Source of the DNA: a virus
Virus record (IMG/VR): IMGVR_UViG_3300045988_164919
Location: 1 to 64,000 of that record
Direction: 5' to 3' (one strand)
DNA length: 64,000 bases
Under the pieces are notes generated by a model, which ran no database searches, was not told the DNA's origin, and saw only the letters and a program-made list of their open reading frames with translations. Positions 15,985 to 60,500 of the stretch are shown one piece after another (within the stretch, counting starts at the first letter, position 1; each line of letters begins with the position of its first letter). Both the position numbers and the translations under genes were made by a program.

Positions 15985-16272
15985 TTAATCGGTGGTATTA
16001 ATTTTAAGTTTATTATCGCCAAATGTTGCTGTCCAGTTTGTGACTGTTGGATAATTTTTACGAATAAAATCAAGTTCCAAATCAGCCTTGGCCTTTGTAT
16101 AACGAATAAGTGCATATTTATAAAGATTAGTAACCTTAGTTAATGTATCATTGTCACAATCTCTATCGCGGACAATTACTTCAGCCATAATATCTTTATA
16201 AGCTTCAGTTTCAAAATAGCTATCCTTTAATTCATCAAGATATTCAGTAGGAATATCAATAAAATACTGCAT
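15985..16272 (-). CDS. hypothetical protein (95 aa)
   Basis: ORF only. Confidence 0.4.
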   Translation of the reverse strand: MQYFIDIPTEYLDELKDSYFETEAYKDIMAEVIVRDRDCDNDTLTKVTNLYKYALIRYTKAKADLELDFIRKNYPTVTNWTATFGDNKLKINTTD

Positions 16273-16329
16273 AATTTATATCTCCTTTTTATCTTTTATA
16301 ATATATTTTAATATATTATATTCTAAAAA

Positions 16330-16788
16330 TCAAATACCGTAATCCATATTTAGTTCGTCACTATTCTAACTATCAGTATAAACTGTTAAATCAGTAGTAG
16401 CAGTTGAATCAGATGAAGAAGTAGAAACCTAATTATTTTTAATTAATTCTTTAATGACTTCATTAAAATCAGCATTATTAGTATAAGTCATATTTAAGTA
16501 TTTCTCTAACTAGCTATCTAATTCTTTCATTACAGTATCATATTTAATACCGCCTTTTGTATTTTCAAGCATACTTTTTTTATAATAAAATACCTAACTA
16601 ACTCCATAGGCTGCCCAAGGCAGAGAAGCCGAAGCTGTTATCCAAGGCAAGGAGCCAGTGTATCCTTGAATTATACAAAAAAATGCTAAAGCAATATATA
16701 AAAGGCTTGTTATCCAAATAAGAGCTGATTCTTGAATAAGTAAACCTTTTGAATATTCCTTTTTTGGTTTTCTCTATTTTATATACAT
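16330..16788 (-). CDS. putative holin or membrane protein (several TAGs)
   Basis: Hydrophobic segment ESALIWITSLLYIALAFFCIIQGYTGSLPWITASASLPWAAYGVS; lies immediately upstream of the endolysin; ends at TGA 16330-16332. Confidence 0.35.
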
Positions 16789-16808
16789 TTTATCTCTCCT
16801 TTTGGAGA

Positions 16809-18101
16809 TTATTTATCACTCATAATACGATAAAGAACTTGAATCATTTCTTCACGAGTCATAAACTTTTTATACATTGTATGACCTTTACCATCACCTT
16901 TAATGTAACCATTACCTTCAGCCCAAGTACGTGCGTCAGCAGACCAAGCGCTAGGATCTTTTGCGGCAAGTTCAGTCAAATAATTAGTCATAAGTTCATT
17001 AAATCTTTCTTGAGTCATATCTTCATCTTCCTCCTATACTCCTAATAATTTATTTACTTTTTCGGCAATTTCATAGTGTTTATTATATAAATATTCGCCA
17101 GGACAAGACTTATTAGCAAACCATCTATGAACTGTCATATTCTATTCTTCTGGATGGCCGATTAAGTTTTTATCAGCTTTCCATTTTAATGATTTAATAT
17201 TATTACGTTTACAAATATCAACAAGCAATTTAATTAAAGAATTAAATGCTGCATCAGTTACTTTATAAGGCGAAGTAGTGTCACTAGCGACTTCAATAGT
17301 AATAGCACGATTATCATTAGCTCCATTAGAAGAACACCATGAACGATCTTTTTCTTCAACGTACATACCAATTCTACCATCAGGGCCAATACCATAATTA
17401 GAAGAAGCTTGTCTTGATGTTGGTGCAAATACCTCTCCAAGAGCTTCAACAGAACATTGTCCAACTACACAGTGAATCGTAACAGTATCAATTACATGGT
17501 TACGAGGACTTGTCTTATTAGGACTAATTTTAGTATAATTTACTAATGGACTATTAGTTTTACCATAACCATATCCAGCCATAGGATCATTATCTACCGT
17601 ATCACTATCTTTGACTGCTGGATTATAAATAAATCCAAGAAATTTATAACCGGCGCCAGCGCCCCAATTACCATTTCCTTTTTTACGTGTTGCATTCCAG
17701 AAGGGATTCTTACTGCCCCAACCACTTTCAGATGTAATAATTTCAGTAGGACTTATTACTTTTTCTACAATAGCTACGTGGCCAACACCATCGCTACCTT
17801 TTTTAGTAGCTCCTCCTTGCCAAACCATACAAGCTCCAAGTTTAGGCACTTGTCCAACTGGAATACCAGTATTATTATATTCCATAAAACGTTCAGCATT
17901 AACAGGGCTTAAATATTTACAATAACCCCAATTACCAATTTCATTAAAACGACCATAGGCATAACCTACACAGTTTGATAATACATCACATTTACTATCT
18001 GTTGGATTGCCTTTAATAGCATATGAATAACCGCCATTAGCTCTTGTGATATAATATTTATTACCTGCTTCTGGTCGTGTGGTTCTCATTTTAAAAGCCA
18101 T
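16809..18101 (-). CDS. endolysin: CHAP peptidase plus N-acetylmuramoyl-L-alanine amidase (amidase_2/PGRP) plus C-terminal binding domain; two in-frame TAGs
   Basis: CHAP Cys/His (CDVLSNCVGYAYG...GHVAIVEKV); amidase_2 (VTIHCVVGQCS...YGIGPDGRI...SWCSS); ORFs 17142..18101 and 16809..17018 share a frame. Confidence 0.7.
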
Positions 18102-20292: not shown

Positions 20293-21153
20293 TTATTTCA
20301 CAGGAGCTGTTAAGGTAAATATTTTTTTTACGCATTCAATCCAATATAATGCAGCATTTCTATCTACGGTGTTTAAATGCACTATTGTTGTTTTAGTAAA
20401 ATCATCTGGGTCTGGGATTTCCAAATCCCAAATCTTAATAGGATTCATTTTATCTTGGTCTAATACAATACGTCCTTGATTTAAATTATTTAAATTAGTA
20501 ATAATAGTTTCAAAGGTTTTATTTAATAACATAGTATATGTCATTTTTCCATTTTCATCTTCATTCCAATTGCTTACAAGACCAGCAACACTATTATCAC
20601 CAAATTCATTTATATAATTTTTATCATTATAAATTTTACTGACTTTTAAATTTTCAAATAATCTATAAATAACCTTTTTAAGATTATTTATGTCATCACT
20701 TTCTGCAATACGAGAAATATGTAAATTCTTTTCTAACTCATTTACTTCTTCACTTGTACAGCCGTTATTACAATGTCCAATACAACCTCCAGAGCAAGTT
20801 CCTGAACATTGTTCAGCACAAGCTGTTGTACAAGTACCAGAGCATCCTCCACTGCAAGAGCCTTCACAGCTAGAACAAGAACCATCACAGCCGCCACAAT
20901 TTCCAGTGCAACTATCACAATCACCAGTACAATCTGTATCACATGTCCGCTTCGGTCCGCAATCTCCACTGCATTCTCCACAACCTGCTACACAATCATT
21001 GCCAGAGCAACTAGAACAAGTATTTCCACTATTCATACTATCCCCATTGAAACAGCCTGTTTCACAGGCTCCTCCTGGTAGCCCTGGTTGATAATTATCT
21101 GAGCCTTCATATCGACCCATTGTTCTACTATCTCGTCCTGAGTTACAAGCCAT
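20293..21153 (-). CDS. extremely Cys-rich protein (about 40 Cys within about 130 aa) with a C-terminal globular domain
   Basis: N-terminal GCGECSGDCGPKRTCDTDCTGDCDSCTGNCGGCDGSCSSCEGSCSGGC...; immediately downstream of a radical SAM/SPASM gene. Confidence 0.5.
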   Translation of the reverse strand: MACNSGRDSRTMGRYEGSDNYQPGLPGGACETGCFNGDSMNSGNTCSSCSGNDCVAGCGECSGDCGPKRTCDTDCTGDCDSCTGNCGGCDGSCSSCEGSCSGGCSGTCTTACAEQCSGTCSGGCIGHCNNGCTSEEVNELEKNLHISRIAESDDINNLKKVIYRLFENLKVSKIYNDKNYINEFGDNSVAGLVSNWNEDENGKMTYTMLLNKTFETIITNLNNLNQGRIVLDQDKMNPIKIWDLEIPDPDDFTKTTIVHLNTVDRNAALYWIECVKKIFTLTAPVK

Positions 21154-41640: not shown

Positions 41641-41715
41641 TGGCACCGGCTCTCAGAGTCGAACTGAGACTTGCTGATTTAGAGTCAGCTGAGCTAACCG
41701 TTACCCAAAGCCGGA
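41641..41715 (-). tRNA. suppressor tRNA with anticodon CUA, decoding UAG
   Basis: Reverse complement TCCGGCTTTGGGTAACGGTTAGCTCAGCTGACTCTAAATCAGCAAGTCTCAGTTCGACTCTGAGAGCCGGTGCCA. Anticodon stem GCTGA/TCAGC, loop CTCTAAA (anticodon CUA), T-arm CTCAG-TTCGACT-CTGAG, 4-nt variable loop, G73, CCA encoded, T1.T72 mismatch. Confidence 0.7.
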
Positions 41716-41870: not shown

Positions 41871-43200
41871 AAATTATTCAGTAGAATATATTTACAAAAA
41901 TTAATATATCCAATAGAAATAAACTACACCATAGCCACTAACCATTTGTTGGTCGCCTCTATGCCTACCCACGCCACTAAGTACTTCAGCTTACCTCGTT
42001 CATTAGCTATTGGAATATATTAAATTTTTGACCTACCATTAAACTTATAATACCCACCAATAGGAAGTAAATATACAGTTTTTAACAATAGGATTTTAAT
42101 TCTATAATCTAACAAAATAAATAAATAACTCTACCTATTATATGTCCTTTTCGCGAGTCCACTACGTCTCATTTTCCACGCCTTTATATGAGAGACTACC
42201 AAGGATCTTATTTCCGCACTTGGTAATGGCTTTTTGATATGTGAGCCACAAACATCCCTATTCAGCTTATTTATAGTGGAGAGCTGGCTGGTTTAGCGTA
42301 TTGTTCCACTACCTAATTAACCAAGATTAGGACGCTAATCAAATATCTGATACGTATCAGTACGGTTTCCAGATATATCATTTCACCAGACAACAGGCGA
42401 GTCAACCTTATTTGATTAGATTATGTAAGAACCCTACAGCCATAGGAGCAGGTTCCGCAGAGGCCTCTAACGATGTGGGATTGGCTACCCAATGAGGTTA
42501 ATGTGCAAGCCACCGCCTATATTAGCATCTACATAATTCATTTCAAATAAATCATTTAATGATTTATTTTTAACAGGAAAGGAAATCGTAAGTTATTAAA
42601 TAATAACTTAATTACAATTATACTACGGACCTTCGCCCTACTGGTTAATAATCTTCATTTTATTAGGTAAGTAAGGAAACAAGTCTGAGCTATGAATAGC
42701 GACTTCATAACTTCTTGCCCCGGCCTAAGCCAAATCTCACAGAGGACTGACTACCTCTATCTTTCACCGACCATTCAGAATAGTATTACCAATAATTTTT
42801 ACTAAATTAATATCATACTGTCTTGGCAAATTTCGGCTACTTGACCCTTGACCTTCTCTTATAGTAGATTACGCCACATCAATTGCCAACTTCCTTATTG
42901 GTATTTCCTTGGTTTGGCAAAGTTACCAGCCTTACCCTAACAAGGATTCGGCATTGCTGTTAACAATGCTGTCTATTATGGAAGCGAGAAGAACAGGACC
43001 TTAAATGCGATTATCCCAGCACAATCTCCCCGTAGCCGCATCCTTTGATGCGTGAATCTAATGTATCACTACAAAAGATTTAGAAATAATTTCAAAGTAT
43101 CCTTTGAATATTCCATTCTACAATCTCCGCCAGAGTAGGTCGATTTCTCAGCCTTATGGTGTTAAGTCTGCACTGAGTTGTACTATAACCGTAATTAAAT
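41870..43200 (-). ncRNA. candidate large structured noncoding RNA (about 1.3 kb, class unknown)
   Basis: No ORF of 60 aa or more in any frame over about 1.5 kb; GC is markedly higher than the genome; bounded by promoter motifs at 43225-43250 and 41832-41870; many local hairpins; the 12-mer caccatagccac (41927-41938) repeats the 3-prime-terminal element of the tRNA-Leu intron (40783-40794). Confidence 0.3.
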
Positions 43201-43224
43201 TATTATTTAATTTTTAAAGTTCAT

Positions 43225-44438: not shown

Positions 44439-44514
44439 TGGAGCCGGCAGACGGATTCGAACCCCCGACCTATTGATTACAAATCAATTGCACTACCAAC
44501 TATGCTATGCCGGC
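44439..44514 (-). tRNA. tRNA-Thr (anticodon UGU)
   Basis: Acceptor GCCGGCA/TGCCGGC, D-arm GCAT/GTGC, anticodon stem ATTGA/TCAAT with loop TTTGTAA, T-loop TTCGAAT; the T-stem GGGGG/CCGTC has one internal mismatch. Confidence 0.6.
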
Positions 44515-44545: not shown

Positions 44546-44580
44546 TCTATATATATTATATAAAATTTTTTTTAAATTTT
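44546..44580 (-). promoter_or_regulatory. copy of recurrent promoter motif
   Basis: tatatatattatataaaattttttttaaattttcaaatt. Confidence 0.45.
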
Positions 44581-45455
44581 CAAATTATACAACATAAATA
44601 ATGTGCTAATTCTAATTGATATTCTTGCTTAAAGAAAAAAGGAACTATTGAAAAAATTATAGTGAATACATCATTTCGACCGCTTAATTTAAAGCTGTTA
44701 TAAAATAATGGTAAATATTTTTCACATATTTCATTATAAGTAATTTGATCATTCTTATAATGAAAATTCTTTAAAGGATCATCACTTTTTAATGTTTTAC
44801 ATTTTAAAATATCTTTTGAAGTTACTTCTTCATATAAAGTTATTTTAGCAAATCCATTATAATGTTTATATAAATATGGACAAATAATCGGGCAAGGGTC
44901 ATTGCATAAAAGTTCAAATCTATTTCTTACTTCTATTGGAATTGATTCTAAAAACTTAAAATCTTTTATTTGTCTTCGAGGTAAAACAATTTTATCATAT
45001 TTATTTAAAAGAGACAAATAATCTGTATTTTTATTTGAAGCTATTATACTTCTTTTAATTTTAAATTTAGGATATTTATTTCTTATATATTCTTCTAAAA
45101 TAGAGGAAGAAACTAAAATTGAATTATTTTCATTTTCACATAAGGAAACGATTTTATTACAATATCTATCATACAAGTCTTCTTTTGTTAATAATGGATT
45201 TGTTAAGGTTAAAGCAATTTCTATATTATTTCCATAATAAAAATCAATAATTTCTTTTATTTTTTCTAATGAAGGTTGATAGCCTTGATTGACAGTTCCT
45301 CCATTCCAAATCATATTTGGGAATGTATCGAATATACTCTCTATAGCTACATTAAAATTGAAACATTCTGGAGCTGTCTATTGTAATTCTAAAAGAGTTT
45401 TATATATATTAAATCCAGTATAAAATCCTGGACAATTTAAATTTATTTTTTTCAT
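44580..45455 (-). CDS. paralog family A protein 1 (unknown function; N-terminal NxPGxY, IWNGG, C-terminal Cys cluster); one TAG
   Basis: MKKINLNCPGFYTGF...FPNMIWNGGTV...ELLCNDPCPIICP; paralogous to 46999..47763 and 47774..48622. Confidence 0.5.
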
Positions 45456-45462
45456 ATTTAAA

Positions 45463-46233
45463 TTATATAATATTTTTTACTTTTTATCAAATATAAAATT
45501 TTGAATAATTTGTATTCTCCATTTTTTGAATTAACTAATTTTGATATTTTGTGTTAGTAGGAGCATTTAAATAAAAATTTTTTATTTCTGAAATTTTATT
45601 TAAAAGTTCATTTCTTTTTACTATAAAATCAAAATTACTGTAATTATTAAAATTATTTTTTATATCTAAAATATATGGTTTATACATTCCTAGCTATAAA
45701 CTTTGTTTATAACTTTTTGTTTTATAATATTCAATTATTATTATTAGATCAATAAAAGATTTATAAATTAATTTATAATAATTTTTTAATTTATAATAAT
45801 TTTCTCGTAATCCAGTCTAAAATAATCTATTACTTTCATTAATTAATTGAGAATAAATGACTGGTAAATTTTCTTTAACTATATCTTCATTAATTTTTTT
45901 TATTTCTAAAGTAAATTCATTATCACTTAAATAATGATAAGGGAATAACCATCTATAATAACTATAGTTATTATTATAAAATAAATTATAAATAAAATGT
46001 TCTCCTGTATAAATCCGCCTTGAAGGATTCCAATTTATAATATTAAATTTTTTCATAAAATTATTAGACTATTCCTATGGAATTAAATTTAAATCAAAAT
46101 TTGAAATTTTTTTTAATTCTTTTTCCATATTTATAAAAGAAGAATAGATTTCAATAATATCTATATCACTTGTGTTATTATTTATTCCATGCTGGTAAGA
46201 ACCATCGATCAATCCATATAAAAAATAATCCAT
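45463..46233 (-). CDS. nucleotidyltransferase-fold protein (Pol-beta-like minimal NTase motif); several TAGs
   Basis: N-terminal MDYFLYGLIDGSYQHGINNNTSDIDIIEIY (hG[GS]...D[IV]D); in frame with ORF 45817..46056 through TAGs. Confidence 0.3.
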
Positions 46234-46235
46234 AG

Positions 46236-46871
46236 TTACCTCAATAGTATAGTTAAATTTTTTGTATGTTCAATTAATTTTTTTATTTTAAATATTGTTA
46301 AATGAAAAGCCCATTTATCAGGATAATGGTCAGTATCATGTTTATAATAAAATTTTGGTAAATGATAATATTTAGGATATAAGATATTAAATATTTCTTC
46401 ATCTGTTTGAAAATTTATATAAAACTATAATATTGATTTATATAAATTTTTATTTGGCTTTATTATAGCTATTCCGCCACTTAATCGTCCTTTAGATTCC
46501 TAGTTATCATATATTTCATAAAAACTACCATCTGGATAATCAAAAATATTATCAATATTTTCAGCAATTAAAATATCAGCATCTATAAAACAAATTTTTT
46601 TGTACTAAGTTAAAGTATAAATAAAAAATTTATTAGCGGTATCTTTATAAAAATTAGAATCTCCACAAAAATAAATTGGCTATTCTATTATTTTATAATT
46701 TATATTATTTTTTTTTAAAATTTTAAAATAAATATCTGATACATTATTAGTAGTTAATAGTAAAAATGGATATTTACTATTAACTTTTTTTAATGAAAAA
46801 TATAAGGCACAAGCACATTTAATATATTTATCAGTTGTTGCAAGTGTTACAAAGCAGTATTTGTCGTTCAT
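46236..46871 (-). CDS. glycosyltransferase family 8-like (about 4 TAGs)
   Basis: CFVTLATTDKYIKCACALYFSLKK...FLLLTT and DxD segment ICFIDADILI. Confidence 0.45.
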
Positions 46872-46998
46872 CAGTGACTCCTAAAATATCTGTTACACAA
46901 TGTTCAATAAAATCATATTGGTATTCTGGTAATAATAAATATCGAGCATAAGTACATATATTATCAATATAATTTAAAGAACGTCCCTCTAATTTATA

Positions 46999-47763
46999 CT
47001 ATTCAATACCAAGAGGATAATACAAATTATAAATATTATCTAATGTTACTGTATTCTTATAAGCAATAACTTCTGGGCTATTAACACTTTTAACTGCTTT
47101 ACAATTTAATGTATAAGGTTTTCCATAAGATAAAGCATATTCACTATTGATTTTATAATGATTAATACGATTTGGACAATTAGGAATACAAATTGCATTA
47201 CATAATAATTCAATTTTATTTTTTAAATTTAAAGGAATTTGTTTTAAAAAATCTATATTAGAATTTAAATCATAATCTAAACAAATAAATTTATATTGAG
47301 CTTTCTTAATTTCATTTAAACTTTGTTCTAAATTTGTAATTCTTTTAGTGGTTGAAGAAATAAAATTATACTTATTATATTTATTTCTAATATATTCTTC
47401 TAACCCTTCATTATTAATTACAATTTCATTCAATCCATTATTTCCAATAGCTAAAATGAGATTTTCAAAACGACTATTATAATTTTCTTTAGTTAATAAC
47501 TAATTTGTAAAAACTAATCTGACCGCAATATTATAAGAATTATAAAAATTAAAAATTTCCTCAATATCTTTTTTTAAAGCCTAATGAGTTTTAAAATTAG
47601 TAAAAGTTCTGCCGCCTTCCCAAGAACAAAATTGGAAATTTCCATAACAAGCATGAATTGTAATATTTTTATTAAAAATTTCTGGCTATTTATTAAGTTG
47701 TTCAATTGTTAATTTATTTAATTGGTATGTTTCATACATACCTGGTAAATTAAAATTAATCAT
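46999..47763 (-). CDS. paralog family A protein 2 (3 TAGs)
   Basis: MINFNLPGMYETYQ...EEYIRNKY...ELLCNAICIPNCPNRINHY. Confidence 0.5.
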
Positions 47764-47773
47764 TACTTATATT

Positions 47774-48622
47774 TTATCTCCTTATAAATAATTCTTGAAA
47801 GGCATATTCTTTAAATTCTGGTTTAATAAAATAATTAATTAAAAATAGACCGTATTCATTTTCATTGTTAGAGAAATAATCTATTAAAAAATTAGTGATA
47901 CCCATAGGGATATAAATATCTTTAATTTCTTTAATCGTTATATATTGTTTATTATTTATAGAATTTTTACAATTACAAAATGTAGGTTCAAATGTATAAT
48001 TTAATATATTATTATTTTCTACTATTGGACATTGAAAATAATTTTTACATTTTGGATTACAAAGATTATTAACTGGAATTATAATATTTTCTTTATTATT
48101 AATTTCATTTAAATATTGCTGTGAAGTTTTAAACTCGTTAGGGATTATTATATATAATGGATTTAAATTTTGATGAAAATTATTTATAATATCGGGAGTA
48201 AGAGGATATAAGATATTAGCATTTTTAGAAATAACATATTTCAAATTAGGAAATTTGTTATTTATATAATTTAATAAATCTAAATTACTAATTTCAAAAA
48301 TGCAATTATTTGGTAATAATTTTAAAATTACATTACTCATTACATCATAGAAATCTGATTTTTCTAATAAAATATTAGAAAAATCTAACCACAAAGGTAA
48401 ATTACTTTGCTTAATTATTAATTCTATATTAGGATACAATAAAGTATCACCAACCATGTTATTTAATCCTCCATTCCAAATATTATAAGGGAATGTCCCT
48501 CTAATATAGGAAAAAACTATGTTTTTATCAAGAAGCCAATTAGTATGGCTTCTTGATAAATTAATAAATTTATCATTTACAGTATGAAAATAGTAAAAAT
48601 CAGGTAAGGTAAATTTAATCAA
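47774..48622 (-). CDS. paralog family A protein 3 (no TAG)
   Basis: MIKFTLPDFYYF...FPYNIWNGG...NLCNPKCKNYFQCP; RBS AGGAGAATAAAATTG. Confidence 0.5.
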   Translation of the reverse strand: MIKFTLPDFYYFHTVNDKFINLSRSHTNWLLDKNIVFSYIRGTFPYNIWNGGLNNMVGDTLLYPNIELIIKQSNLPLWLDFSNILLEKSDFYDVMSNVILKLLPNNCIFEISNLDLLNYINNKFPNLKYVISKNANILYPLTPDIINNFHQNLNPLYIIIPNEFKTSQQYLNEINNKENIIIPVNNLCNPKCKNYFQCPIVENNNILNYTFEPTFCNCKNSINNKQYITIKEIKDIYIPMGITNFLIDYFSNNENEYGLFLINYFIKPEFKEYAFQELFIRR

Positions 48623-48874
48623 TTTTATTCTCCTATAGAATATAGCTAATTTGTTAATTTATTTAATTCTTTTGAATAATCTATATTTAAATCTTTTAGT
48701 CGTAAATCCTAATTCTATAATAAATTTGCTAAGGTATAAATTATTTTTTTATTGACTTCTGGATTTGGTTCTTCTAAAGTAACCATATTATTGTATATAA
48801 CAAATAATAAATCCATATATCCCTTATTTTCTTTTATAATATTATTTGTAATTTCTTTTAAAATATTATCTAAA

Positions 48875-50245
48875 TTATCCATTTAAATCATACCCCAATT
48901 CTATAGCTATGTTTTCTATTACTTTTGGTAATATTTTTTGATCTTTCGCACTTTTCAAAACTCCAGTTTCAAAATATAATTTAAATAAATAATTATATTT
49001 TTCTTGAAATAAATTACAAACTGATAAACAAGGGATAGAAAAATCACCATAAGTTTCTATCTAAGCTCCCAAACATCCTTTAATACAGACATCTCTACAC
49101 CAGCATTCTAAACATCTTGGAGCATAAACAGGGTTAAAAGATTTCATTCCTATATAAGCTGTGGCATTATCACTTATTAAATCAATTATCTCTGTTTTTT
49201 CATCATTTATTTTAAAATGTCCACCAATTAAATGATTATAACAAGTACGATGACAAGGAACGATAGCTAAATCTCCAACCCTTATATGAACAGTAGACTA
49301 CAATGCACAGCTTATTCGGTTATGTCTGTCTTCTTTATCTGATAAATTCATTAATCGTATAGGATCTCCATTGTGCTCATTAAATGTAGGAGTATTATTA
49401 GCCCCATCCCCTTTAAACATTGCATAAGCCATAGTATTAATATCATTATTGCAATCATTCAATCTATCTTCAAAGATATGTTTTAAGAATTTTTTATAAT
49501 TCTCTATAGATTCTTGAGTCCAATTATTATTTCGAACTTCTAACATATAAGGAGTTTTCTACCATGAATTGTATTCTTTTAATTTCTTTTTAAACCAATC
49601 ATAAGTTTTAATGGCTTTATCAACATTTTGGCTAGAAATCATAGGATGGAAGCCATCATTATTTTCTGTAGCAAATTCAAATAATTTATTAAAATATTCA
49701 TCATTTAAATCTTTATGTTCTCTAAATTCAGTGCTATACGGCCCATCAGTAGAAAATGAAAAATGAATTTCTACATTTATATCTTTCATCTTTTGGATAT
49801 ATTTTTTTATTTTTATTACTTTTTCATTATCAGAAATAAAACTACCATTAGTAGGTATTACTAGTTTACCTTTTTCTTTTATTCTATAAGCAAATTCATA
49901 CCATTTTTTTAAATATGGGAAAAATACATCTAGTATTTCAAAAATTAATCCATCATAAAATAGGTCTCCGGCAAATAATGACCACTCTAAAGGTTTTATT
50001 TGTTTTTTATCAAAATAATCTAATAATAATTTTAAATTATCTAATATCTAAGAATTAGAAAAATGTTCTGGATATAATTCTTTGCCATAATTAGTTATAT
50101 AACAATAATCACATTTTTGATTACAGTCTTGTCTTATAATTAATTCTAATATTTCATTTTCCATCTTTTTTAATTCATGATTAAAAATAAAATTCTAAAA
50201 TAGAATATTTTCTTCCTATTGGAAATCAATAGACGTTGTTATCAT
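48875..50245 (-). CDS. radical SAM/SPASM enzyme number 2 (peptide-maturase/anSME-like); about 6 TAGs
   Basis: RQDCNQKCDYCY (CxxxCxxC); hand-translated C-terminal SPASM ...PCHRTCYNH...RCLECWCRDVCIKGCLGA; strong RBS GGAGGA before ATG 50243-50245. Confidence 0.6.
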
Positions 50246-51678
50246 TATTTTTCCTCCAAAACTTCTTCAATAATTCCATTACAATATCTTCTTAAAAATC
50301 CACTATCTCTAAAGAAATAAGAACCAGTACTGATTAAACTATTAAAAAAACAAGAATGTATAGGTACTAATAATAATGCTGCTTTCATTAAAAATTTATC
50401 GTCATTAAATTTTTGACTTATCTAATGCACTTCTCGTAAATTACATAATAAAGAAACAATCTAATTATATACATAAAAAAAACTAGATACAGATAAAGTT
50501 TCAAATAAAAAACAACAATTTTTTATATCTTCATCTTTATCTTTCAATGGATTTATATAATTATGATGATTTGCGGCAAATTGCTTAATAATCCCAATTT
50601 TATCATTAGTATTAATATATTCTGGATTAGTATCATAAAGAGAACTCTAACAATTTACTAATGTTCCATCATATAAAAGTTTTAAGCTTCCTGTTTTTTC
50701 TCCGCAATATAAGAATGGAGTTAAGTTTCTATTATAATTCTTTAATTCTTTATTAGAGAATGCTAAAATTTTATCAAGAGCTTCATCTAAATTAGAACAT
50801 TCCAAATTTTTTAATAAAAATTTTTTTGCTTTTCGAGGTAAACACAATAATCCTTCAATAGAGTCTTTATCTGGATTATTAATTTCTGGATAATGTTCTC
50901 CAATTGATTTACAAATTTTTATAAAATTACTCCAATTAATACCATCAATACTAGAAGTATTAATAGGTAATTCGCTAGAGAAATTTATAGTATTTTTGAT
51001 AAAAACAGATTTATTTAGATTTAAATTAGTTAAATATTGAATTTTTTCATTAGCCTAAATAAAATACTATTCTATTTCTTTGTAATTATTATTAAAATGA
51101 TTTATGAGTTCATTACTAATAACTCCATGAGTATTAAGAGCAATAGTAATATTATTAAAATGAATTGTATTTAAAGTTTCTATTAAATATTTTAAATTAT
51201 TATATACTACTTTAGAATTAGCTCTTCTTACATTATCAGTACTATAATCTCCATCATAAGAAAACTAAATACAAATAAATGAATGTTTTTTAGTTAAATT
51301 ATCAAAAGTTTTTAAAAAATCAATTATTTTATCAGTATTAGCCATACCATTAGTAGAAGTAAAAAATTCATTAATATTGGGACATAATTCAAAAAAATCT
51401 TTTAAATTTTTAGTAAAATGTTCTAATACTAATGTAGGTTCTTGACCCCAAAAACTTATTTTATGGATATTTAATGGATCAACTTCTAATTTTTTCATAA
51501 CATTTTTAATATTCTATAAATAACTTCCATCTTTAAGAGCCTTTATAGTCTATTCTTGTAACTATTTACTATATTCATTTACAGCCTAAGCTGAATGACA
51601 ATATTTACAATTTAAATTACATCCACAAGCTCCAATAATAGATAATTCTTCTATTGAAAAATCCGATATATATTTCAT
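50239..51678 (-). CDS. radical SAM/SPASM enzyme number 3; many TAGs
   Basis: MKYISDFSIEELSIIGACGCNLNCKYCH (CxxxCxxC), WGQEPTL, downstream Cys clusters; RBS AAAGGAGAAAAAGGA. Confidence 0.5.
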
Positions 51679-51698
51679 TCCTTTTTCTCCTTTAAATG

Positions 51699-52214
51699 TT
51701 AAGTGTGCCTAGAACCGTAATGACTAGAGCATCCATGAGATGAACACCAGGTTTGATTAACCCCTGACCAATAGGAAGAATGATAACCTGAACCATCATG
51801 AGAAGAATTATAAGAAGTATCCCATCCTGCTCCATAATCAGAACTATCCCAACTACTATTATATCCACTACCTCTATGGCTAGCATTATAACTCGCATCA
51901 TGAGCGCAAGTATCATTTATGCTTCTAATTGTAGTAGTAAATCTATTAAAAATAATAGGACTAATTAAATCTCCTGCCGAAGGAGGATTTTCACTAATAT
52001 TTGCTCTTGAACCAACATAACTGCTACTGGAAAAAGATTCTATATACTTATTTAAATTCTGAGCTAATTGAGCCATAGCTTGTGTTGACTATCCTCCAGG
52101 AGTCGCTTGAAAATCACTCTAACTAGGGAAAAATTTTTTTCTTGCGGTATTTAAATTAGTAAAAATAGTCTAAATATCACTCCAATTTATTTTAGAGTTT
52201 GAACTAATTGCCAT
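51699..52214 (-). CDS. precursor-like peptide/protein with a Ser/Gly/Tyr/His/Trp-rich repetitive C-terminus, immediately upstream of radical SAM number 3 (3 TAGs in the N-terminal leader)
   Basis: ...CAHDASYNASHRGSGYNSSWDSSDYGAGWDTSYNSSHDGSGYHSSYWSGVNQTWCSSHGCSSHYGSRHT; good RBS GAGGAGGAAAAAT before ATG 52212-52214; alternative internal start at 52076. Confidence 0.4.
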
Positions 52215-54195
52215 ATTTTTCCTCCTCGCATTTTATAAAATCAATATACTCTTTGTTAATAAATTGTTTAATTAGTTTATTATTATCAAGTATATGATTT
52301 CCTTTATTAAATAGACTATTTAAATTAAATAATACAGTATTATTTAATTTAATAAAATCTTCTTTTTTTATTTTATTTAATAAATCTTTATAAAACAATG
52401 ATAACTTATTAAACAAAATTTTATCATTAATTAAAATTAAACAAATAAGACTTAAACAAATTGCTTCTTCTTGTTTTATATCTTTTAGATATTCTTTGTC
52501 TTTATCAGTTACTTCTTCTATTATAGATAAATTTACAATAATTTTATTAAAAATATGTTCGAAAATAAAATGATTATTTTCATATTTTTTATTTGTTAAA
52601 TATTGTCTATAAAAATAAGTAAAAACAATTAATTCATTTATTGTCATATATAAAAAATTAATATCTTTGCCCATACTTTCATTATTTCTATTATATACGT
52701 AAATAGGCTATTCTAAGAAGGGAATTGCACCATTATAAAAATCAAAAATCTATAATGATAAAAATCTATCTTCATTATAAATAAATTTGCCATAAGAAAA
52801 ATTATTTTTTATAAAAAATTCTCTATTATATAAATAACTATGAGCGTCATGGATAAATTCATTTTTATCATAGGTCTATCCATTTACAATTCCATAATTA
52901 TTATTTTCAGCATATATATATAAATTTTCTAAAGCCTTATTATCATAAAAATAATCATCACTATCTAAACAGAAAAAATACTTATTGAAGCTATTATTAA
53001 TTCCTAAAGTCCTAGCTGACGCAGGGCCTGATTTAGTTTTCTAAGTATCTAATAATATTATATTGTATATATTATTATAAGTTTTATAAAATTCATATAC
53101 ATATTTTTTATCTGGAGAATTATCACTAATTAAATAGATTACACAATCATTAATAATACTTTGTTTAAAGACAGAATCTAAACATTTCTAAAAATATATT
53201 TTATTTATTGTATAAAAAGGAATTATAATATCAATTTTTCCTTCGTTGCGCTTTCTAAATGTCCTCATTTTATCAGGAGCATACCAAGAATCAACGTTAT
53301 TCCAAGATTTCTTTTTTGAAAAATCCTAAAAATTAGAAAAATCAACAAATTTTTTATAATATTCATTATAATTTGTTAAGAATAATTCTTTTTCTGTTTT
53401 AGTATATTCATCATAAGTTTTAGTCGATTGATCCCAATCAACCACATCTCCTGGCCGACAATATTTACATATATTTTTTTCACATAATTTTAAATTCTAT
53501 AAATCTTGTAAATTTGTTTTTTCTGTTAGTTTTATAAAATCTTTATTTTCTATTAATGGAATTTGTTTAAAAAAATAATTACAAAAATTATTTATGTGTG
53601 CCCCAAACTGACAAAAATATATTTTAAAATCTTTTAATGTAAAGCAAGGAATCCTATTTGGACAACTATATATACGAGTTTTATTATCTTGTTTACCTAA
53701 AGGGTCAACCAATGTCTAATCAAAGAAAAATCTATCATTTAAATATGAGATATTTTTATTATTGCTAAAATCTTTGTAGTCTTGATTAGGATATTTAGAA
53801 ATACTTATATGTATATTTAATTCTTCTAATTTTTTTAATTTTTTTGTATCATAATTATTTAAAATTATACCATTAGTTAATATCTTTATTTCTATCTCTG
53901 GGAGAATATTTCTAGCTATCTAACATAATTCTATTAAATTAGGATGTAAAAATGGTTCTCCCCCTAATAGCATTAAAACTTTAATAGAAGGCAAAGTTTT
54001 TTTTACTAATTTTAGCTAATTTTGAAAATCTTCGTAAGTAATAAAAAATGGAGAAGCCAAAGGAGAAAAATGATTACAATTATTGCATTGTAGGTTGCAA
54101 TGGTCTACTAAATGAATTTCTAATTCAAATCCATCAAAAACTGTAGGCCAAAATGCTCTAGTAGGTCCATCTCTATACTAATTTATTTTATTCAC
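52192..54195 (-). CDS. radical SAM (number 4) fused or translationally coupled to a family-2 glycosyltransferase; start uncertain, about 8 TAGs
   Basis: VDHCNLQCNNCNHF (CxxxCxxC) and LLGGEPFL, then Cys clusters CPNRIPC...CQFGAHINNFC...CEKNICKYC, then GT2 motifs KIDIIIPFYT...CLDSDD. I hand-verified a continuous frame across 53212-53497 containing only a TAG; it then continues into ORF 52204..52674. Confidence 0.35.
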
Positions 54196-54269
54196 CTTCT
54201 TTTTTTATTATTATATAAAAAAAATGCTTGAAAAGCAAATTTTAAGAACAAGCTTTTCAAGCATTGTTG

Positions 54270-54593
54270 TTAAACAAAATGAATAATTAAATTATTAATT
54301 TGGACTCCATTATCATTCATAATAAAAATTTCATCTACTTTATTATAATTATTATATTCCCAAATTAGTTCTTCATTATCATTATAAACTTTTATATTTT
54401 CAATTTTATCTAATTCCATAAGCCATCCTAACATTTGTTTTATATTATAATTAGATGGCACATTTCCTCTAGCTGCTTCTAATAAAAACATTGTTTTTGG
54501 CTAATCATCAGAAGCAGGATGATAAGCTCGTTCTGTAACAAAACTTAAATTATCAATAGGTTTATCAACTAAATTATTAATTATAATTTTCAT
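54270..54593 (-). CDS. hypothetical protein (one TAG)
   Basis: ATG at 54591-54593 is in frame with ORF 54270..54491. Confidence 0.3.
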
Positions 54594-54617: not shown

Positions 54618-55052
54618 TTAGCCCCAAGCAACTGGAATAGGTTTCCATGAATCACTTGATGATGTACGATATTTCAATACTCCATTACTAGAAATATCTA
54701 CCCAAATAAGAGCAGATGAAGAAGAAGGAGCAGTAGTCCCAATATAAATCTAATTGTTTGACGTAAAACCAACAGTAGGAGTTATAGTTGGATTGCTATT
54801 ATCCACATAATTTTTAGTAGCTATATCATTACCAGATATTGGGACATAGTTATTCGCCATCTAAATTTTACCATTGGCGCTCATTACATTTACTTCATCT
54901 TTATAAAGACGCTATTCAAAATCATCGTCTATAATTACTAATGATTGTTCTTCATTTAACTAATTATCCTCTTTTAATTGTCTATATAAAGCTCTAGTAG
55001 GGATTTGATTGATAGAAAGAGTATTTAAATTTGTACTAGTTTTTGAAGCCAT
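54618..55052 (-). CDS. small fiber-associated protein with conserved C-terminal module (about 5 TAGs)
   Basis: C-terminal ...ALIWVDISSNGVLKYRTSSSDSWKPIPVAWG; RBS GGAGGTATACAAATG. Confidence 0.4.
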
Positions 55053-58505: not shown

Positions 58506-59492
58506 TTAATTATTAAATTTAGGAATTGCTATATAATAATAAGTATAACCGTTATTATTGAATATACTAGTATAATAACTACTAGCAGCAGTAATAATAA
58601 CTGATTTTGAATTCCAAGTAAAACTAACATAAGTGCCATTATTGTTAGGAAATGGGTATTTCATTCCTTGTATGCCACACATATAATTTTGAGCAGTACC
58701 AGTGTTAGTTTGCACCATAAATAGCATCAAATAAGCAGGTTCAAAATTAAAATTAAGAGTTTTTGTTAAAGCATTATTTCCTATATAACTTCCAACATAA
58801 GCTCCTTTGATACTTATATCGCCAGTCATTCCATTTACTGATCTAACCAAATGAGATGTAAGATATCCAACATCATTAGTTAATTGACTTACTTTAGAAA
58901 TTTTGTTATTCTATATCTACTAATCAACATATTTTTTATCAGTTAAGTCTCCAGTATTAGATGGTGTATAAGTACTATTCATAGTTATTTTGCCTGTTGT
59001 CATAATATTATTTTTTGAGGTTAAAAGCATTTCATTCATATCTTTTGGCAATTCACTTATTTTATTATCAATAGCCTAAATAGTATCATTTTTTATAGTC
59101 TATAAGTCATTTATCACATCTAATAAATAGTCTTCTGGTTCTATTCCTCGAATATTAAGAACAATAATACTATCATTAGCTGATGCCGCAAAATCTAATA
59201 ACTTAATTTTATTATCTTGAATTGTATAGTTTATATTTTTAGTCATTAATATACCATTAAAAAATATATTTAAATCTTCAGGATTTTCAACAGTAAAAGG
59301 AAAAGTAAATGTTGTATCTCCTTCTTGTGCAATGAAAGAATATTTATAAGGAAGGTCATCTTCTTTATTTACAATGTATATTTCATCATTGTTTACTTTT
59401 CCTTGTTTCACCATTTGATTATAAATTTTCCTAGATGGAACTTTATTTATAACTAAAGAATCTAATAATTTTTCATTGTTTTTTATTTCCAT
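58506..59492 (-). CDS. tail fiber protein with GDxxxKKYVD fiber repeat (ORFs 59100..59492 and 58506..58850 joined; about 6 TAGs)
   Basis: Hand-verified read-through ...INDL*TIKNDTI*AIDNKISELPKDMNEMLLTSKNN...; repeat TMNSTYTPSNTGDLTDKKYVD. Confidence 0.45.
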
Positions 59493-59507: not shown

Positions 59508-60500
59508 TTAACTCCAAGCAACAGGTACGATAGTCCAAGTTCCAGTTTTAGATGTACGATATTTAAAAGTACCAGATGAAGATGTGTCAATCCATAATAA
59601 AGGTGCTGTGCCTGACGCGGGAGTGGATGAGCCAATATAGATTGGAAAAGTAGTAGCTGTACCAACTATTGAAGGTTTACTATCATCTACATATTTTTTT
59701 GTAGCAACATCTCCGTTTGCTGAAGGAGTATAAGTACTATACATAGTAATCTTACTATCAGCAGCCATTGTGTTTGTTTTATTTAAAAACATAATATTGG
59801 AAGTATCCGATGGTAATGTGGCAACTAAATCATTAATTTCTTTAAGAGTCTTTTCTTTCACAGTATTTATTTCATTAATTGATGAAGTTTTTATAGCTTG
59901 TATTTGTTTAATTGCATCTTCTGCTTCTTTACCAAAATCAATTGCTGCAGCACCTTCTATACCCATTACAGTAAGATAATCACTAGCTTCAGCAGTAAAA
60001 CCGGCAAGAGTAATGTTTTTACCAGATACTGTATAGTTATCTATCTCCCTCATCATTATACCATTATAATAAACGGTAAGTGCGCTACTGTCTTCAAAAT
60101 CAAATGGAATAGTAAATGTAGACTAACCTGCTGTTGCAGTAAATGTAAATCTATTTACTATATGGTCATTAGCGGCAACCTAGTCATCTACATATTTTTT
60201 ATTTGCGGCTTCTGTATCGGCTGTTGGAGTTTTTAAATTAGTAATTGTTTTATTATTAATATTAATATTACCAGTCATAGTACCGCCAGCAAGAGGTAAA
60301 TATTTTCCATTTATAGTATCTAAGTCATTAATAAAAACCAGATTTCCTACTTTAGTAGCTCCATCACCTATTTTTATTTTCTTTAAATCATCATATATAA
60401 TAATTTCGCCTTTTAAGGGGACAAAATTAGTTGCTTTATCCCAATTAGCTTTTGTATCATGCTTCTAAATCATACGGCCTTGGAATGTATTATTTGCCAT
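59508..60500 (-). CDS. tail fiber protein (N-terminal GEIIIYDD...IGDGATK motif, fiber repeat, conserved C-terminal module; 4 TAGs)
   Basis: Hand-verified continuous frame from ATG 60498-60500; ...ATKKYVDD...APLLWIDTSSSGTFKYRTSKTGTWTIVPVAWS. Confidence 0.5.

Follow-up and report, generated by a model that had tools for sequence, protein, structure and literature searches.

HXS (HxsD-HxsB-HxsC-HxsA) is a bacterial antiphage system, 99.7% of it found in Pseudomonadota, in which two radical SAM (S-adenosylmethionine) enzymes and a small protein put a +8 Da change on the SHRSS motif of the repeat effector HxsA (PMC13128918). [quoted passage not shown] The U32 proteins UbiU/V, TrhP and RlhA are iron-sulphur (Fe-S) proteins tied to oxygen-independent hydroxylation of aromatic rings, with prephenate shown to be the oxygen donor in the UbiU/V-dependent pathway and proposed as such for the U32 family (PMC10990095); TrhP and RlhA are reported to act on RNA bases (PMC6599085, PMC5727448). 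Here we compare with these systems an island of genes found in a 64,000-nt stretch of viral DNA (positions 1 to 64,000 of the IMG/VR virus record IMGVR_UViG_3300045988_164919; hereafter the window). Judging from its genes and their relatives, we think it rather likely that these genes form a self-contained cassette, expressed late, for the post-translational maturation of their own 171-aa protein, pep. It is set apart by paired U32-fold proteins, a fusion of radical SAM and glycosyltransferase family 2 (GT2) domains, substrate-like proteins of aromatic/Ser tetrad repeats and residence in recoded phages of Firmicutes.

The window belongs to a large gut phage in which TAG has become a sense codon, and the minus strand of the window bears essentially all of its genes once TAG is translated. 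The island is an operon-like array of ten minus-strand genes (54195-44580) with intergenic gaps of -41 to +31 nt, in the order rSAM3-GT2, pep, rSAM2, rSAM1, p85, U32C, U32B, GT8, p248 and U32A. The original prediction had placed at 48875-54195 a late-expressed system for protein modification or for a product like a ribosomally made peptide with post-translational modifications (RiPP), and in this hedged form it is favoured by the maturase-type matches of the enzymes and by the synteny of pep and rSAM2. Its three radical SAM genes and its repeat open reading frame (ORF) were all recovered, on the minus strand and solely under a reading of TAG as sense; the end of the unit was misplaced, as the array runs on to 44580, and three U32-fold paralogues and GT8 (plus two ORFs without a family match) had been overlooked. 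The data themselves bear out the gene content, the conservation of Fe-S motifs, the fold of the U32 proteins, synteny and a TAG profile like that of structural genes, all described below.

The putative substrate, pep (51699..52214, minus strand; 171 aa with three in-frame TAG codons), consists of a conserved N-terminal domain and a repeat tail. The gap of 20 nt that had been described between the repeat ORF and the third radical SAM gene was found to separate the 3' end of pep from rSAM2, and rSAM3-GT2 is instead overlapped by pep at its 3' end by 23 nt. A low-complexity tail rich in Ser, Tyr, His, Trp and Gly was borne out as the C-terminal 66 aa of pep, which are made of tetrad repeats S-[YWH]-[DNR]-[SG]-S, one SHRGS among them; the tail holds about a dozen S-aromatic-x-S tetrads, and in the clade of the window the aromatics stand four residues apart. 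The N-terminal ~105 aa carry the motif WSDIxxIFTNLNTAR and are joined to the tail at the motif NDTCAHD. In the predicted structure this domain has helices at residues 11-28, 44-63 and 86-101 with a predicted local distance difference test (pLDDT) of 60-73, and the tail, with a pLDDT of ~30, is disordered. No PHROG match and no Pfam or NCBIfam domain was found for pep, and Pfam searches at E ≤ 10 with the N-domains of pep-like proteins and with CXXX-repeat targets gave no match.

A full HMMER search with a pep profile recovered 318 clusters at 50% identity (E ≤ 0.001), 170 of them at E ≤ 1e-10. Family members measure 77-523 aa among the 150 clusters listed, and up to 671 aa when three distant phages (L007, L008 and L009; related loci are given here as L numbers and single family members as P numbers) are included. 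In close homologues the N-terminal ~105 aa are highly conserved and the repeat tail is variable, and the residues invariant across eight homologues lie mostly in the N-terminal domain. The pep-like proteins of the three distant phages (671, 411 and 309 aa) share the N-terminal motif [ST]D[IL]xx[LWF][YF]xxLNxxR, after which short Phe/Tyr-rich repeats run on for hundreds of residues, and the repeat units of other clades include (S-F-N-S)n, (S-Y-x-[ST])n, GNRTFY-type and His-Ser-Ser-Gly units. Helical domain and repeats are separated by a conserved junction, N-x-C-[AVI]-[HFY]-[DN]. In some members (e.g. P0292, P0297, P0306 and P0181) the helical domain lies C-terminal to the repeats, and at the C-terminus of P0181 (373 aa) stands a Hint/intein-like domain, with a score on Intein_splicing (32.6 bits) slightly under the cut-off, which hints at autoprocessing of its repeat region. 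Because the family spans 77-671 aa and its ~105-aa helical domain can stand on either side of the repeats, pep is not a classical short leader-core peptide; of the earlier proposal of a RiPP core precursor, the substrate-like repeat protein next to a maturase-type radical SAM enzyme stands, and the classical short precursor form does not.

The enzyme encoded directly downstream of pep, rSAM2 (50245..51678, minus strand; 477 aa), has a CX3CX2C motif (CNLNCKYC, aa 20-27) and WGQEP, and passes the Pfam Radical_SAM cut-off (31.3 bits against 29.5); the gene had been placed correctly apart from its 3' end, which lies at 50245 and not at 50239, 6 nt away. Its invariant extra Cys residues, C325/C343 (CX12GX4C) and C443, look like a single twitch-like auxiliary site. 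The neighbouring rSAM1 (48875..50245, minus strand; 456 aa) has CX3CX2C (CNQKCDYC, aa 41-48), FAGD and a seven-Cys SPASM motif. Its score on PF04055 is under the cut-off (21.4 bits against 29.5), with the CX3CX2C motif invariant in six homologues, as are the SPASM residues C313, C331, C378, C381, C387, C391 and C410; these form the C-terminal pattern CX17C...CX2CX5CX3C...C, in which the first spacing differs from the CX9-15GX4C of SPASM. With the SPASM model TIGR04085, rSAM1 gave 17.8 bits (E 0.0034, under the curated cut-off of 27), and rSAM2 and rSAM3 gave no match. C-terminal Cys clusters had been claimed for all three enzymes, and this holds in full for rSAM1, the only one with the complete seven-Cys motif; rSAM2 has its three extra Cys, and those of rSAM3 are not conserved.

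Among NCBIfam models rSAM1 was matched best by the nif11-peptide maturase, and also by PapB (27.3 bits, with an almost full-length alignment), XyeB, YhhB and the CXXX-repeat family, and the top matches of rSAM2 were CbpB, YhhB and PapB, all well under their cut-offs. Searches of the PDB with the single sequences of rSAM1 and rSAM2 gave no meaningful match and family profiles were required: with these, rSAM1 matched CteB (5wgg, E 9e-7) in both its radical SAM and SPASM parts and, weakly, ChlB (E 0.1), and ChlB was the sole match of rSAM2 (E 0.017). From these maturase matches, and from scores far under the cut-offs, we place rSAM1 and rSAM2 as enzymes of peptide-maturase type outside any described family. 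A housekeeping identity had been named as a point to check, and both rSAM1 and rSAM2 have their best family matches among peptide maturases and not in QueE or NrdG. NrdG, QueE and MoaA were rejected as identities of the radical SAM genes on their NCBIfam scores (NrdG/NrdG2, 16-19 bits against cut-offs of 126-131).

The same genome holds a second, recognisable set of this kind. A fourth radical SAM enzyme, rSAM4 (21156-22454, minus strand), passes the CXXX-repeat maturase model TIGR04115 (391.8 bits against a cut-off of 350; also phrog_1802), and directly downstream of it lies the gene of a CXXX-repeat protein of ~286 aa (20293-21153, minus strand) whose repeats are N-terminal. By analogy, rSAM4 and its presumed target offer an in-genome paradigm of a radical SAM maturase with a repeat protein, and in the relative L004 a homologous module adjoins the cassette.

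Set beside HXS, the cassette likewise combines a repeat protein (His-x-Ser in HXS; S-[YWH]-x-[SG]-S, including SHRGS, in pep), two radical SAM enzymes and a small protein. It differs in that its enzymes are not members of HxsB (TIGR03978) or HxsC (TIGR03977), with no match of rSAM1 or rSAM2 at E ≤ 0.01, and in its gene order, its added U32-like proteins and glycosyltransferases and its probable lytic late expression; pep, moreover, lacks a peptidoglycan-binding domain and an export signal, and Tyr, Trp and Phe predominate in its repeats, which have only some His and are not basic. The cassette belongs to phages of Firmicutes, and HXS to chromosomes of Pseudomonadota. Triceptide systems share with it SPASM-type maturases and repeated aromatic-x-x motifs, and rSAM1 and rSAM2 weakly match XyeB, YhhB and ChlB, but the scores on 3-CyFE models are 16-25 bits against cut-offs of 310-450, there are two radical SAM enzymes in place of one, and the cassette's putative substrates have a folded domain of ~105 aa and up to ~550 aa of repeats. 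X3 of the aromatic1-X2-X3 motif is mostly S, T or A in the pep of the window and often Gly (YDG, YRG) in close relatives. The CXXX-repeat (TIGR04115), ranthipeptide and SCIFF systems (PapB, CteB) resemble the cassette in having a SPASM maturase beside repeats with a four-residue period, CteB being the best solved relative of rSAM1, yet rSAM1 reaches only 16.4 bits on TIGR04115 (cut-off 350), and since the pep repeats are built on aromatics and Ser, not on Cys, thioether formation cannot be the main chemistry. As far as its sequences tell, the cassette thus shares the logic of HXS, triceptide and CXXX-repeat systems yet fails all their membership thresholds. Searches of the island proteins against PHROGs and PADLOC gave nothing beyond generic radical SAM core matches, and no PADLOC defence model applied to the island beyond such a match.

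Three further genes of the array, all on the minus strand, encode paralogues with three aligned Cys common to all: U32C (47774..48622; 282 aa from a TTG start), with three Cys invariant in seven homologues; U32B (46831..47763; 310 aa), a TIM-barrel protein; and U32A (44580..45455; 291 aa), a third U32-like paralogue with homologues in L004, L008 and L012. For U32B 210 homologues were collected, and C161, C192, C196 and C221 are invariant in all 36 that were aligned. Its structural model (pLDDT 89.8) gave a sole match at E ≤ 0.001 in a Foldseek search of the PDB, the U32 peptidase Mk0906 (5d88; E 6.6e-5, probability 1.0, template modelling scores 0.50/0.61); a U32B sequence profile found nothing among PDB sequences, and the link to U32 is made by the predicted structure only. 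With the hydroxylases UbiU/UbiV, TrhP and RlhA the window proteins have in common the fold, a Cys cluster, occurrence as a paralogue pair (as in UbiU/UbiV), putative aromatic substrates, an anaerobic habitat and, in two lineages, nearby genes of the prephenate pathway; they are unlike them in being very divergent, with no Pfam match. The pathway genes are, in L012, a DAHP synthase (16189-16992; TIGR01361, 350 bits with a cut-off of 268) that lies two genes downstream from U32B, and a chorismate mutase (TIGR01808, just above the cut-off) 8 kb downstream in L007 (18957-19214), a 206-kb phage contig, where it is adjoined by a gene for a Na+/sulfate-citrate-type transporter. On the strength of the U32 literature and of these prephenate-supply genes, the U32-like pair may hydroxylate the aromatics of the repeats. 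The association of an aromatic-rich tail with the presence of U32 genes was a trend only (13 loci against 2). We know of no U32 protein that acts on a protein side chain, and our literature search found no report of U32 proteins with radical SAM enzymes and a precursor peptide in a RiPP-like cluster.

Glycosyltransferases are encoded at two places in the array. The gene rSAM3-GT2 (52192..54195, minus strand; 667 aa from the GTG at 54195) joins a Radical_SAM domain, a Glycos_transf_2 domain and a helical C-terminal part of ~200 aa; its start codon is uncertain because there is no ATG upstream of the Fe-S motif. The radical SAM core (aa ~26-150 of an N-terminal part of ~260 aa) has CNLQCNNC and GGEP and scores above the Pfam cut-off (44.6 bits), and the GT2 domain (aa ~320-460; CLDSDD) reaches 58.9 bits against a cut-off of 23.3. 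In an alignment with L001, L004 and L012 the CX3CX2C and LD[AS]DD motifs were kept and the extra Cys were not, LD[AS]DD being conserved in four homologues. It had been left undecided whether the radical SAM enzyme and the GT2 are fused or tightly coupled; they are fused, as the standard-code relative L012 has a single ORF of 689 aa. To our knowledge no radical SAM-GT2 fusion has been characterised. The GT2 is most similar in the PDB to GalT1 (5hea, E 7.5e-12), an enzyme from the route by which the Ser-rich repeat adhesin Fap1 is glycosylated. The second enzyme, a glycogenin-like GT8 (46236..46871, minus strand; 211 aa), is just under the Pfam GT8 cut-off (22.7 bits against 24.3) and matches glycogenin-2 and glycogenin-1 best (E 6e-11 to 2e-10); it was detected only in the phage of the window and in two IMG/VR contigs that are nearly identical to it. 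Both GT2 and GT8 thus have protein glycosyltransferases as their nearest solved relatives, in the Fap1 pathway and in glycogenin, and the pep tail is rich in Ser and Tyr. This resemblance is at the level of the general GT2/GT8 fold, and unlike sublancin the island has no recognised SunS-type architecture, exporter or disulfide machinery. A glycocin role had been suggested for GT2 and finds no support: family scans of the island (Pfam, NCBIfam, PHROG) revealed no C39/ABC exporter and no thiol-disulfide oxidoreductase, and the pep core has two to three Cys without the paired-Cys pattern of glycocins.

Conservation of gene order ties pep to the enzymes. The genes rSAM2 and rSAM1 are adjacent and in the same order in L001, L004, L007, L008, L009 and L012; the pair lies just upstream of the U32B-like gene in 26 of the 45 IMG/VR loci that have one, with one more locus breaking off inside the pair. 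In each of the 14 loci recovered from genomes of bacteria and metagenome-assembled genomes (MAGs), rSAM2 likewise adjoins rSAM1. The ORF directly upstream of rSAM2, read in about 20 loci, is pep-like (147-671 aa) except in L064. It is so in each of the eleven IMG/VR pair loci that were read (147-474 aa); among the 14 bacterial and MAG loci a pep-like ORF was recovered in six, L064 has a different protein, and the ORF scan recovered none in the others. These 14 loci belong mostly to Clostridia (Lachnospiraceae, Roseburia, Faecalibacterium, Oscillospiraceae, Clostridium sp. and Family XIII), with Erysipelotrichia and Bacilli also represented; in the nine most distant of them, some on short contigs, no U32 genes were detected. 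Close relatives of the window, on contigs of up to 200 kb, have the order p107, rSAM3-GT2, pep, rSAM2, rSAM1, small ORF, U32C, U32B, and the distant phages L007, L008 and L009, which were reached through U32B, all have a pep-like gene directly ahead of rSAM2 and rSAM1, in L007 and L009 with the small ORF and then U32C and U32B behind them as in the window. No homologue of rSAM3-GT2 was found by tblastn in the L007, L008 and L009 loci, and the gene is present in some lineages only. The conserved partners of pep are thus rSAM2, rSAM1, the small ORF and the U32-like pair, and rSAM3-GT2 is lineage-restricted.

A U32 pair stands downstream in most cassette lineages, and genes for GT2, YcaO, DAHP synthase or chorismate mutase occur in some. 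In the MAG contig L068 a YcaO gene (77 to ~1570; PF02624, 103.7 bits) lies directly upstream of the pep-like gene, rSAM2 and rSAM1, and the YcaO and pep-like ORFs merge when TAG is read through; in L024 a stand-alone GT2 is found next to pep. The neighbourhoods vary by lineage, from tail fibres to dUTPase/RuvC (L021), a sigma factor (L009) or terminase (L012), and because the surroundings change in this way the cassette appears to be a mobile, self-contained module. L012 is an SPbeta-like element (YonJ, YonG) of Clostridiales Family XIII bacterium PM5-7 (GCA_050435405.1) and uses the standard code. In GenBank phages no relative of rSAM1 was found and U32B was matched by three unannotated faecal fragments only, so that none of the annotated GenBank phages carries the cassette; the topoisomerase of the window is less than 39% identical to those of GenBank phages. 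Taken together, these comparisons suggest that the set of enzymes and putative substrate is a recurrent one among many uncultured Firmicutes phages. Literature searches on phage radical SAM enzymes and RiPPs, on SPASM with tail fibres and on U32 with radical SAM proteins and a precursor peptide turned up no account of a cassette of this kind.

The codon usage of the island bears on its timing. With TAG read through, ORFs of at least 150 codons span 61.1 kb of the window, compared to 38.8 kb without, and a tRNA with anticodon CTA (41641-41715, minus strand; labelled 'Pyl' by ARAGORN) would read TAG. TAG codons in window proteins align most often to Gln of relatives (19 of 47 positions, counting only those at which the relative has no TAG itself). 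Alignment of the CTA tRNA to tRNA-Gln was uninformative, so the assignment of Gln to TAG comes from the protein alignments; gut phages are known to recode UAG to Gln by means of suppressor tRNAs (PMC10879173, PMC11210395). Most island genes have 13-35 TAG per 1000 codons, the exceptions being U32C (0) and U32A (3.4), compared to 9-28 in tail-fibre genes and 0-4 in replication genes (ligase 0, topoisomerase subunits 0, helicase 3.9). The island profile therefore resembles that of structural genes and is unlike that of replication genes, which agrees with the earlier suggestion that its many TAG codons would go with late expression. As TAG density implies a need for suppression, it supports late translation of the island, and does not prove it. 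The CTA tRNA belongs to a tRNA cluster at 40.2-44.5 kb that also has tRNAs for Gly, Tyr, Gln(TTG), Pro and Thr. Among these tRNA genes, just downstream of the island, lie a full-length ROOL RNA (42608-43201, minus strand; 320 bits, E 8e-73) and a RAGATH-33 RNA (40590-40702, minus strand; 139 bits).

In the model that we infer for pep as substrate, for the chemistry of each step and for the fate of the product, the three-helix domain of ~105 aa would serve as a docking or recognition module for the enzymes. In a first step rSAM2, with its twitch-like site, and rSAM1, with its full SPASM motif, would abstract hydrogen and cross-link the repeats intramolecularly at or next to the aromatics, giving a product that may resemble the cyclophanes of triceptides or else the SHRSS motif of HxsA with its +8 Da change. 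Next, U32C and U32B (here with U32A) would hydroxylate aromatic rings without oxygen, with prephenate as the oxygen donor. In the lineage of the window, rSAM3-GT2 and GT8 would then glycosylate Ser, Thr or Tyr residues or the new hydroxyls, and the matured pep could leave the cell at lysis or be fixed to the virion beside the tail fibres. A bolder version, which we put forward as speculative and rather doubtful, is that these are the first protein-acting U32 enzymes: in the anoxic gut they would use prephenate to hydroxylate Tyr, Phe, Trp or His of the tail (e.g. Tyr to a catechol like 3,4-dihydroxyphenylalanine), phage DAHP synthase or chorismate mutase would boost the supply in some lineages, and a catechol-rich, cross-linked glycoprotein made without oxygen would serve as a surface or a released factor that is adhesive or redox-active.

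Several observations weigh against the maturation model or parts of it. None of the enzymes scores above the curated cut-off of a characterised family of peptide maturases, and the Fe-S motifs of rSAM1 and rSAM2 begin at aa 41 and 20, leaving no room for a fused N-terminal RiPP-recognition domain of ~80-100 aa. With X3 often Gly, which has no C-beta, the canonical triceptide link from the aromatic to C-beta, a change of -2 Da per motif, cannot be general. The structural model of pep has a low mean pLDDT of 52.5 and matched no known fold by which the helical domain could be classified. Hydroxylation by the U32 proteins is the weakest step: the assignment to U32 comes from a modelled fold and a Cys pattern, and Pfam U32 (PF01136) matched none of the three window paralogues and only 5 of 36 relatives, weakly (best E 6e-4), besides some faint matches in precomputed annotation. 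Shikimate-pathway genes occur near the cassette in two lineages only; chorismate mutase was not found in the window, which was not searched for DAHP synthase. As the most distant cassettes have no detectable U32 genes, the U32 step would not be universal, and TAG density, being a correlate that supports late expression, is not proof of its timing.

Part of the evidence can be read in other ways. It is conceivable, if somewhat questionable, that pep is a structural or fibre-associated protein, and that the cassette matures a virion component by hardening and glycosylating it for survival or sticking in the gut, which would be compatible with the chemistry proposed above. The island comes directly after a tail-fibre module, in which a 938-aa fibre-like and a 330-aa protein match PHROG tail fibre/baseplate families, and its TAG density equals that of the fibre genes; the gene pair stands right after a tail-fibre-like gene in L018 and L037 and after a Gly-rich fibre gene in L001 and L004. 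Elsewhere, however, its neighbours are dUTPase/RuvC (L021), a sigma factor (L009) or terminase (L012), not fibres, and pep has no PHROG match and lacks the fibre motifs of its neighbours in the window (ATKKYVD; C-terminal WxDxS...WxxIPVAW). Members of up to 523-671 aa, protein-like rather than peptide-like, and a helical domain that can lie on either side of the repeats and is ill-suited to be a cleaved leader fit a virion protein. Repeat regions of up to hundreds of residues, reversed domain order in some members and an N-domain conserved beyond a typical leader count against a released RiPP or bacteriocin. Under that explanation, to which we give little likelihood, the helical domain would be a long leader and the modified tail would be cleaved and released by lysis as an antimicrobial or signal. 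The ~105-aa plus ~66-aa layout of pep does have the leader and core dimensions of proteusins (NHLP/Nif11), the best NCBIfam match of rSAM1 is the nif11-peptide maturase, one lineage has recruited YcaO and the junction N-x-C-[AVI]-[HFY]-[DN] could mark a processing site. There is also a phage precedent in sublancin, a glycosylated RiPP (glycocin) encoded by phage SPbeta, to which L012 is similar, but scans with Pfam, NCBIfam, PHROG and PADLOC recognised no gene for a protease, an exporter or immunity among those of the cassette.

A defensive role was also considered, in which the cassette is a phage-borne counterpart of HXS and its matured repeat effector gives superinfection exclusion, e.g. 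by blocking DNA entry at the envelope. The aromatic-x-S repeats, the adjacent SPASM and non-SPASM radical SAM enzymes and the small protein recall that system (PMC13128918), the SHRGS tetrad is near its modified SHRSS motif, and one bacterial isolate, too, carries the cassette in its genome, within a prophage-like element. We consider this unlikely: pep, rSAM1 and rSAM2 have no NCBIfam Hxs match, rSAM3 scores 32.7 bits on HxsC against 267.9, PADLOC gave no defence match, the N-terminus of pep does not look like a signal peptide by eye, and pep lacks domains known to Pfam or NCBIfam and has repeats that are not basic. Dependence on TAG suppression would be typical of late lytic and not of exclusion genes, and HXS is 99.7% from Pseudomonadota, whereas the phages here are those of Firmicutes. 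Least probable of all, in our judgement, is a target other than protein, with pep a bystander and the enzymes modifying a nucleic acid (e.g. 5-hydroxypyrimidines that are then glycosylated) or a glycan of host or phage. The characterised U32 proteins TrhP and RlhA do act on RNA bases, GT2 and GT8 are generic sugar transferases, and phage DNA hypermodification is reported to use radical SAM enzymes and glycosyltransferases (PMC8989533). Against this, a pep-like gene is tightly coupled upstream of rSAM2 in many lineages, also where glycosyltransferases or U32 genes are missing, SPASM-type enzymes and the YcaO of one lineage are typical peptide modifiers, and DNA-modification genes would be expected among the TAG-poor replication genes and not to have a late-gene TAG profile.

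An intrinsic-terminator-like hairpin (54217..54264, minus strand; stems 54264-54252 and 54236-54224 with a T8 run; ViennaRNA dG -18.9 kcal/mol) closes the upstream tail-fibre/p107 unit, and a TATAAT at 54215-54210 comes after it; a promoter scan was uninformative in the AT-rich DNA of the window (133 sites compared to 118 expected). The small ORF p107 (54270..54593, minus strand) lies upstream of the island and its membership of the cassette is uncertain: an ORF of ~105-148 aa occupies its place before the pep-like gene in most lineages, and as an all-against-all phmmer comparison links close lineages only, p107 is a positional partner without detectable homology across lineages. Within the array, p85 (48625..48882, minus strand) has no family match and has homologues in L004 and L001; its position in relatives such as L007, L009 and L012 holds an ORF of 85-147 aa, with homology shown for L004 and L001 only, and by analogy it is possibly an accessory partner comparable to HxsD in HXS. 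The accessory ORF p248 (45487..46233, minus strand) has homologues in L004 and L017 and gave no match in Pfam, NCBIfam, PHROG, PADLOC or PDB. A tRNA-Thr gene (44439-44514) comes after U32A, the last gene of the array.

Further from the cassette, a 144-aa ORF (54618-55052, minus strand) is likely a short fibre paralogue, with the C-terminal motif …LIWVDISSNGVLKYRTSSSDSWKPIPVAWG and ATKNYVD, and the tail-fibre-like proteins at 58506-59492 and 59508-60500 share both motifs. The largest gene of the window (36535-40083, minus strand) encodes a 1182-aa protein rich in Asn, Ile and Lys, with 16 TAG codons and no PHROG match. No TAG codons are present in the genes for an 826-aa protein without a PHROG match that has a long Ala/Glu/Lys-rich C-terminal part (27477-29957, minus strand), a Ro60/TROVE-like RNA-binding protein (30536-32074, minus strand; phrog_850, E 3e-131) and an SPFH/flotillin-like protein with a coiled coil, recognised by eye only (22860-23930, minus strand). 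A 378-aa protein (34405-35541, minus strand) has a signal-peptide-like N-terminus, SLH-like repeats by eye and weak PHROG matches at aa 12-139, and the relative L001 also has a gene with an SLH Pfam match. The SLH-like protein of the window, together with strong GGAGG ribosome-binding sites and an amidase endolysin, points to a Gram-positive host.

If the maturation model is true, these genes would represent a class of protein-maturation cassette that is widespread in large uncultured gut phages of Firmicutes and has so far gone undescribed. The logic of a repeat effector matured by radical SAM enzymes, known from HXS, would then extend to phages and to Tyr/Phe/Trp repeats, U32 proteins, whose prephenate-dependent hydroxylase activity is not known to have been reconstituted in vitro so far, would gain a genetically compact, protein-based substrate that can be traced by mass spectrometry, and the shikimate-pathway genes of phages would be tied to a concrete use. 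Much enzyme chemistry of this kind is hidden by stop-codon recoding, since the standard code breaks the genes of the cassette into fragments.

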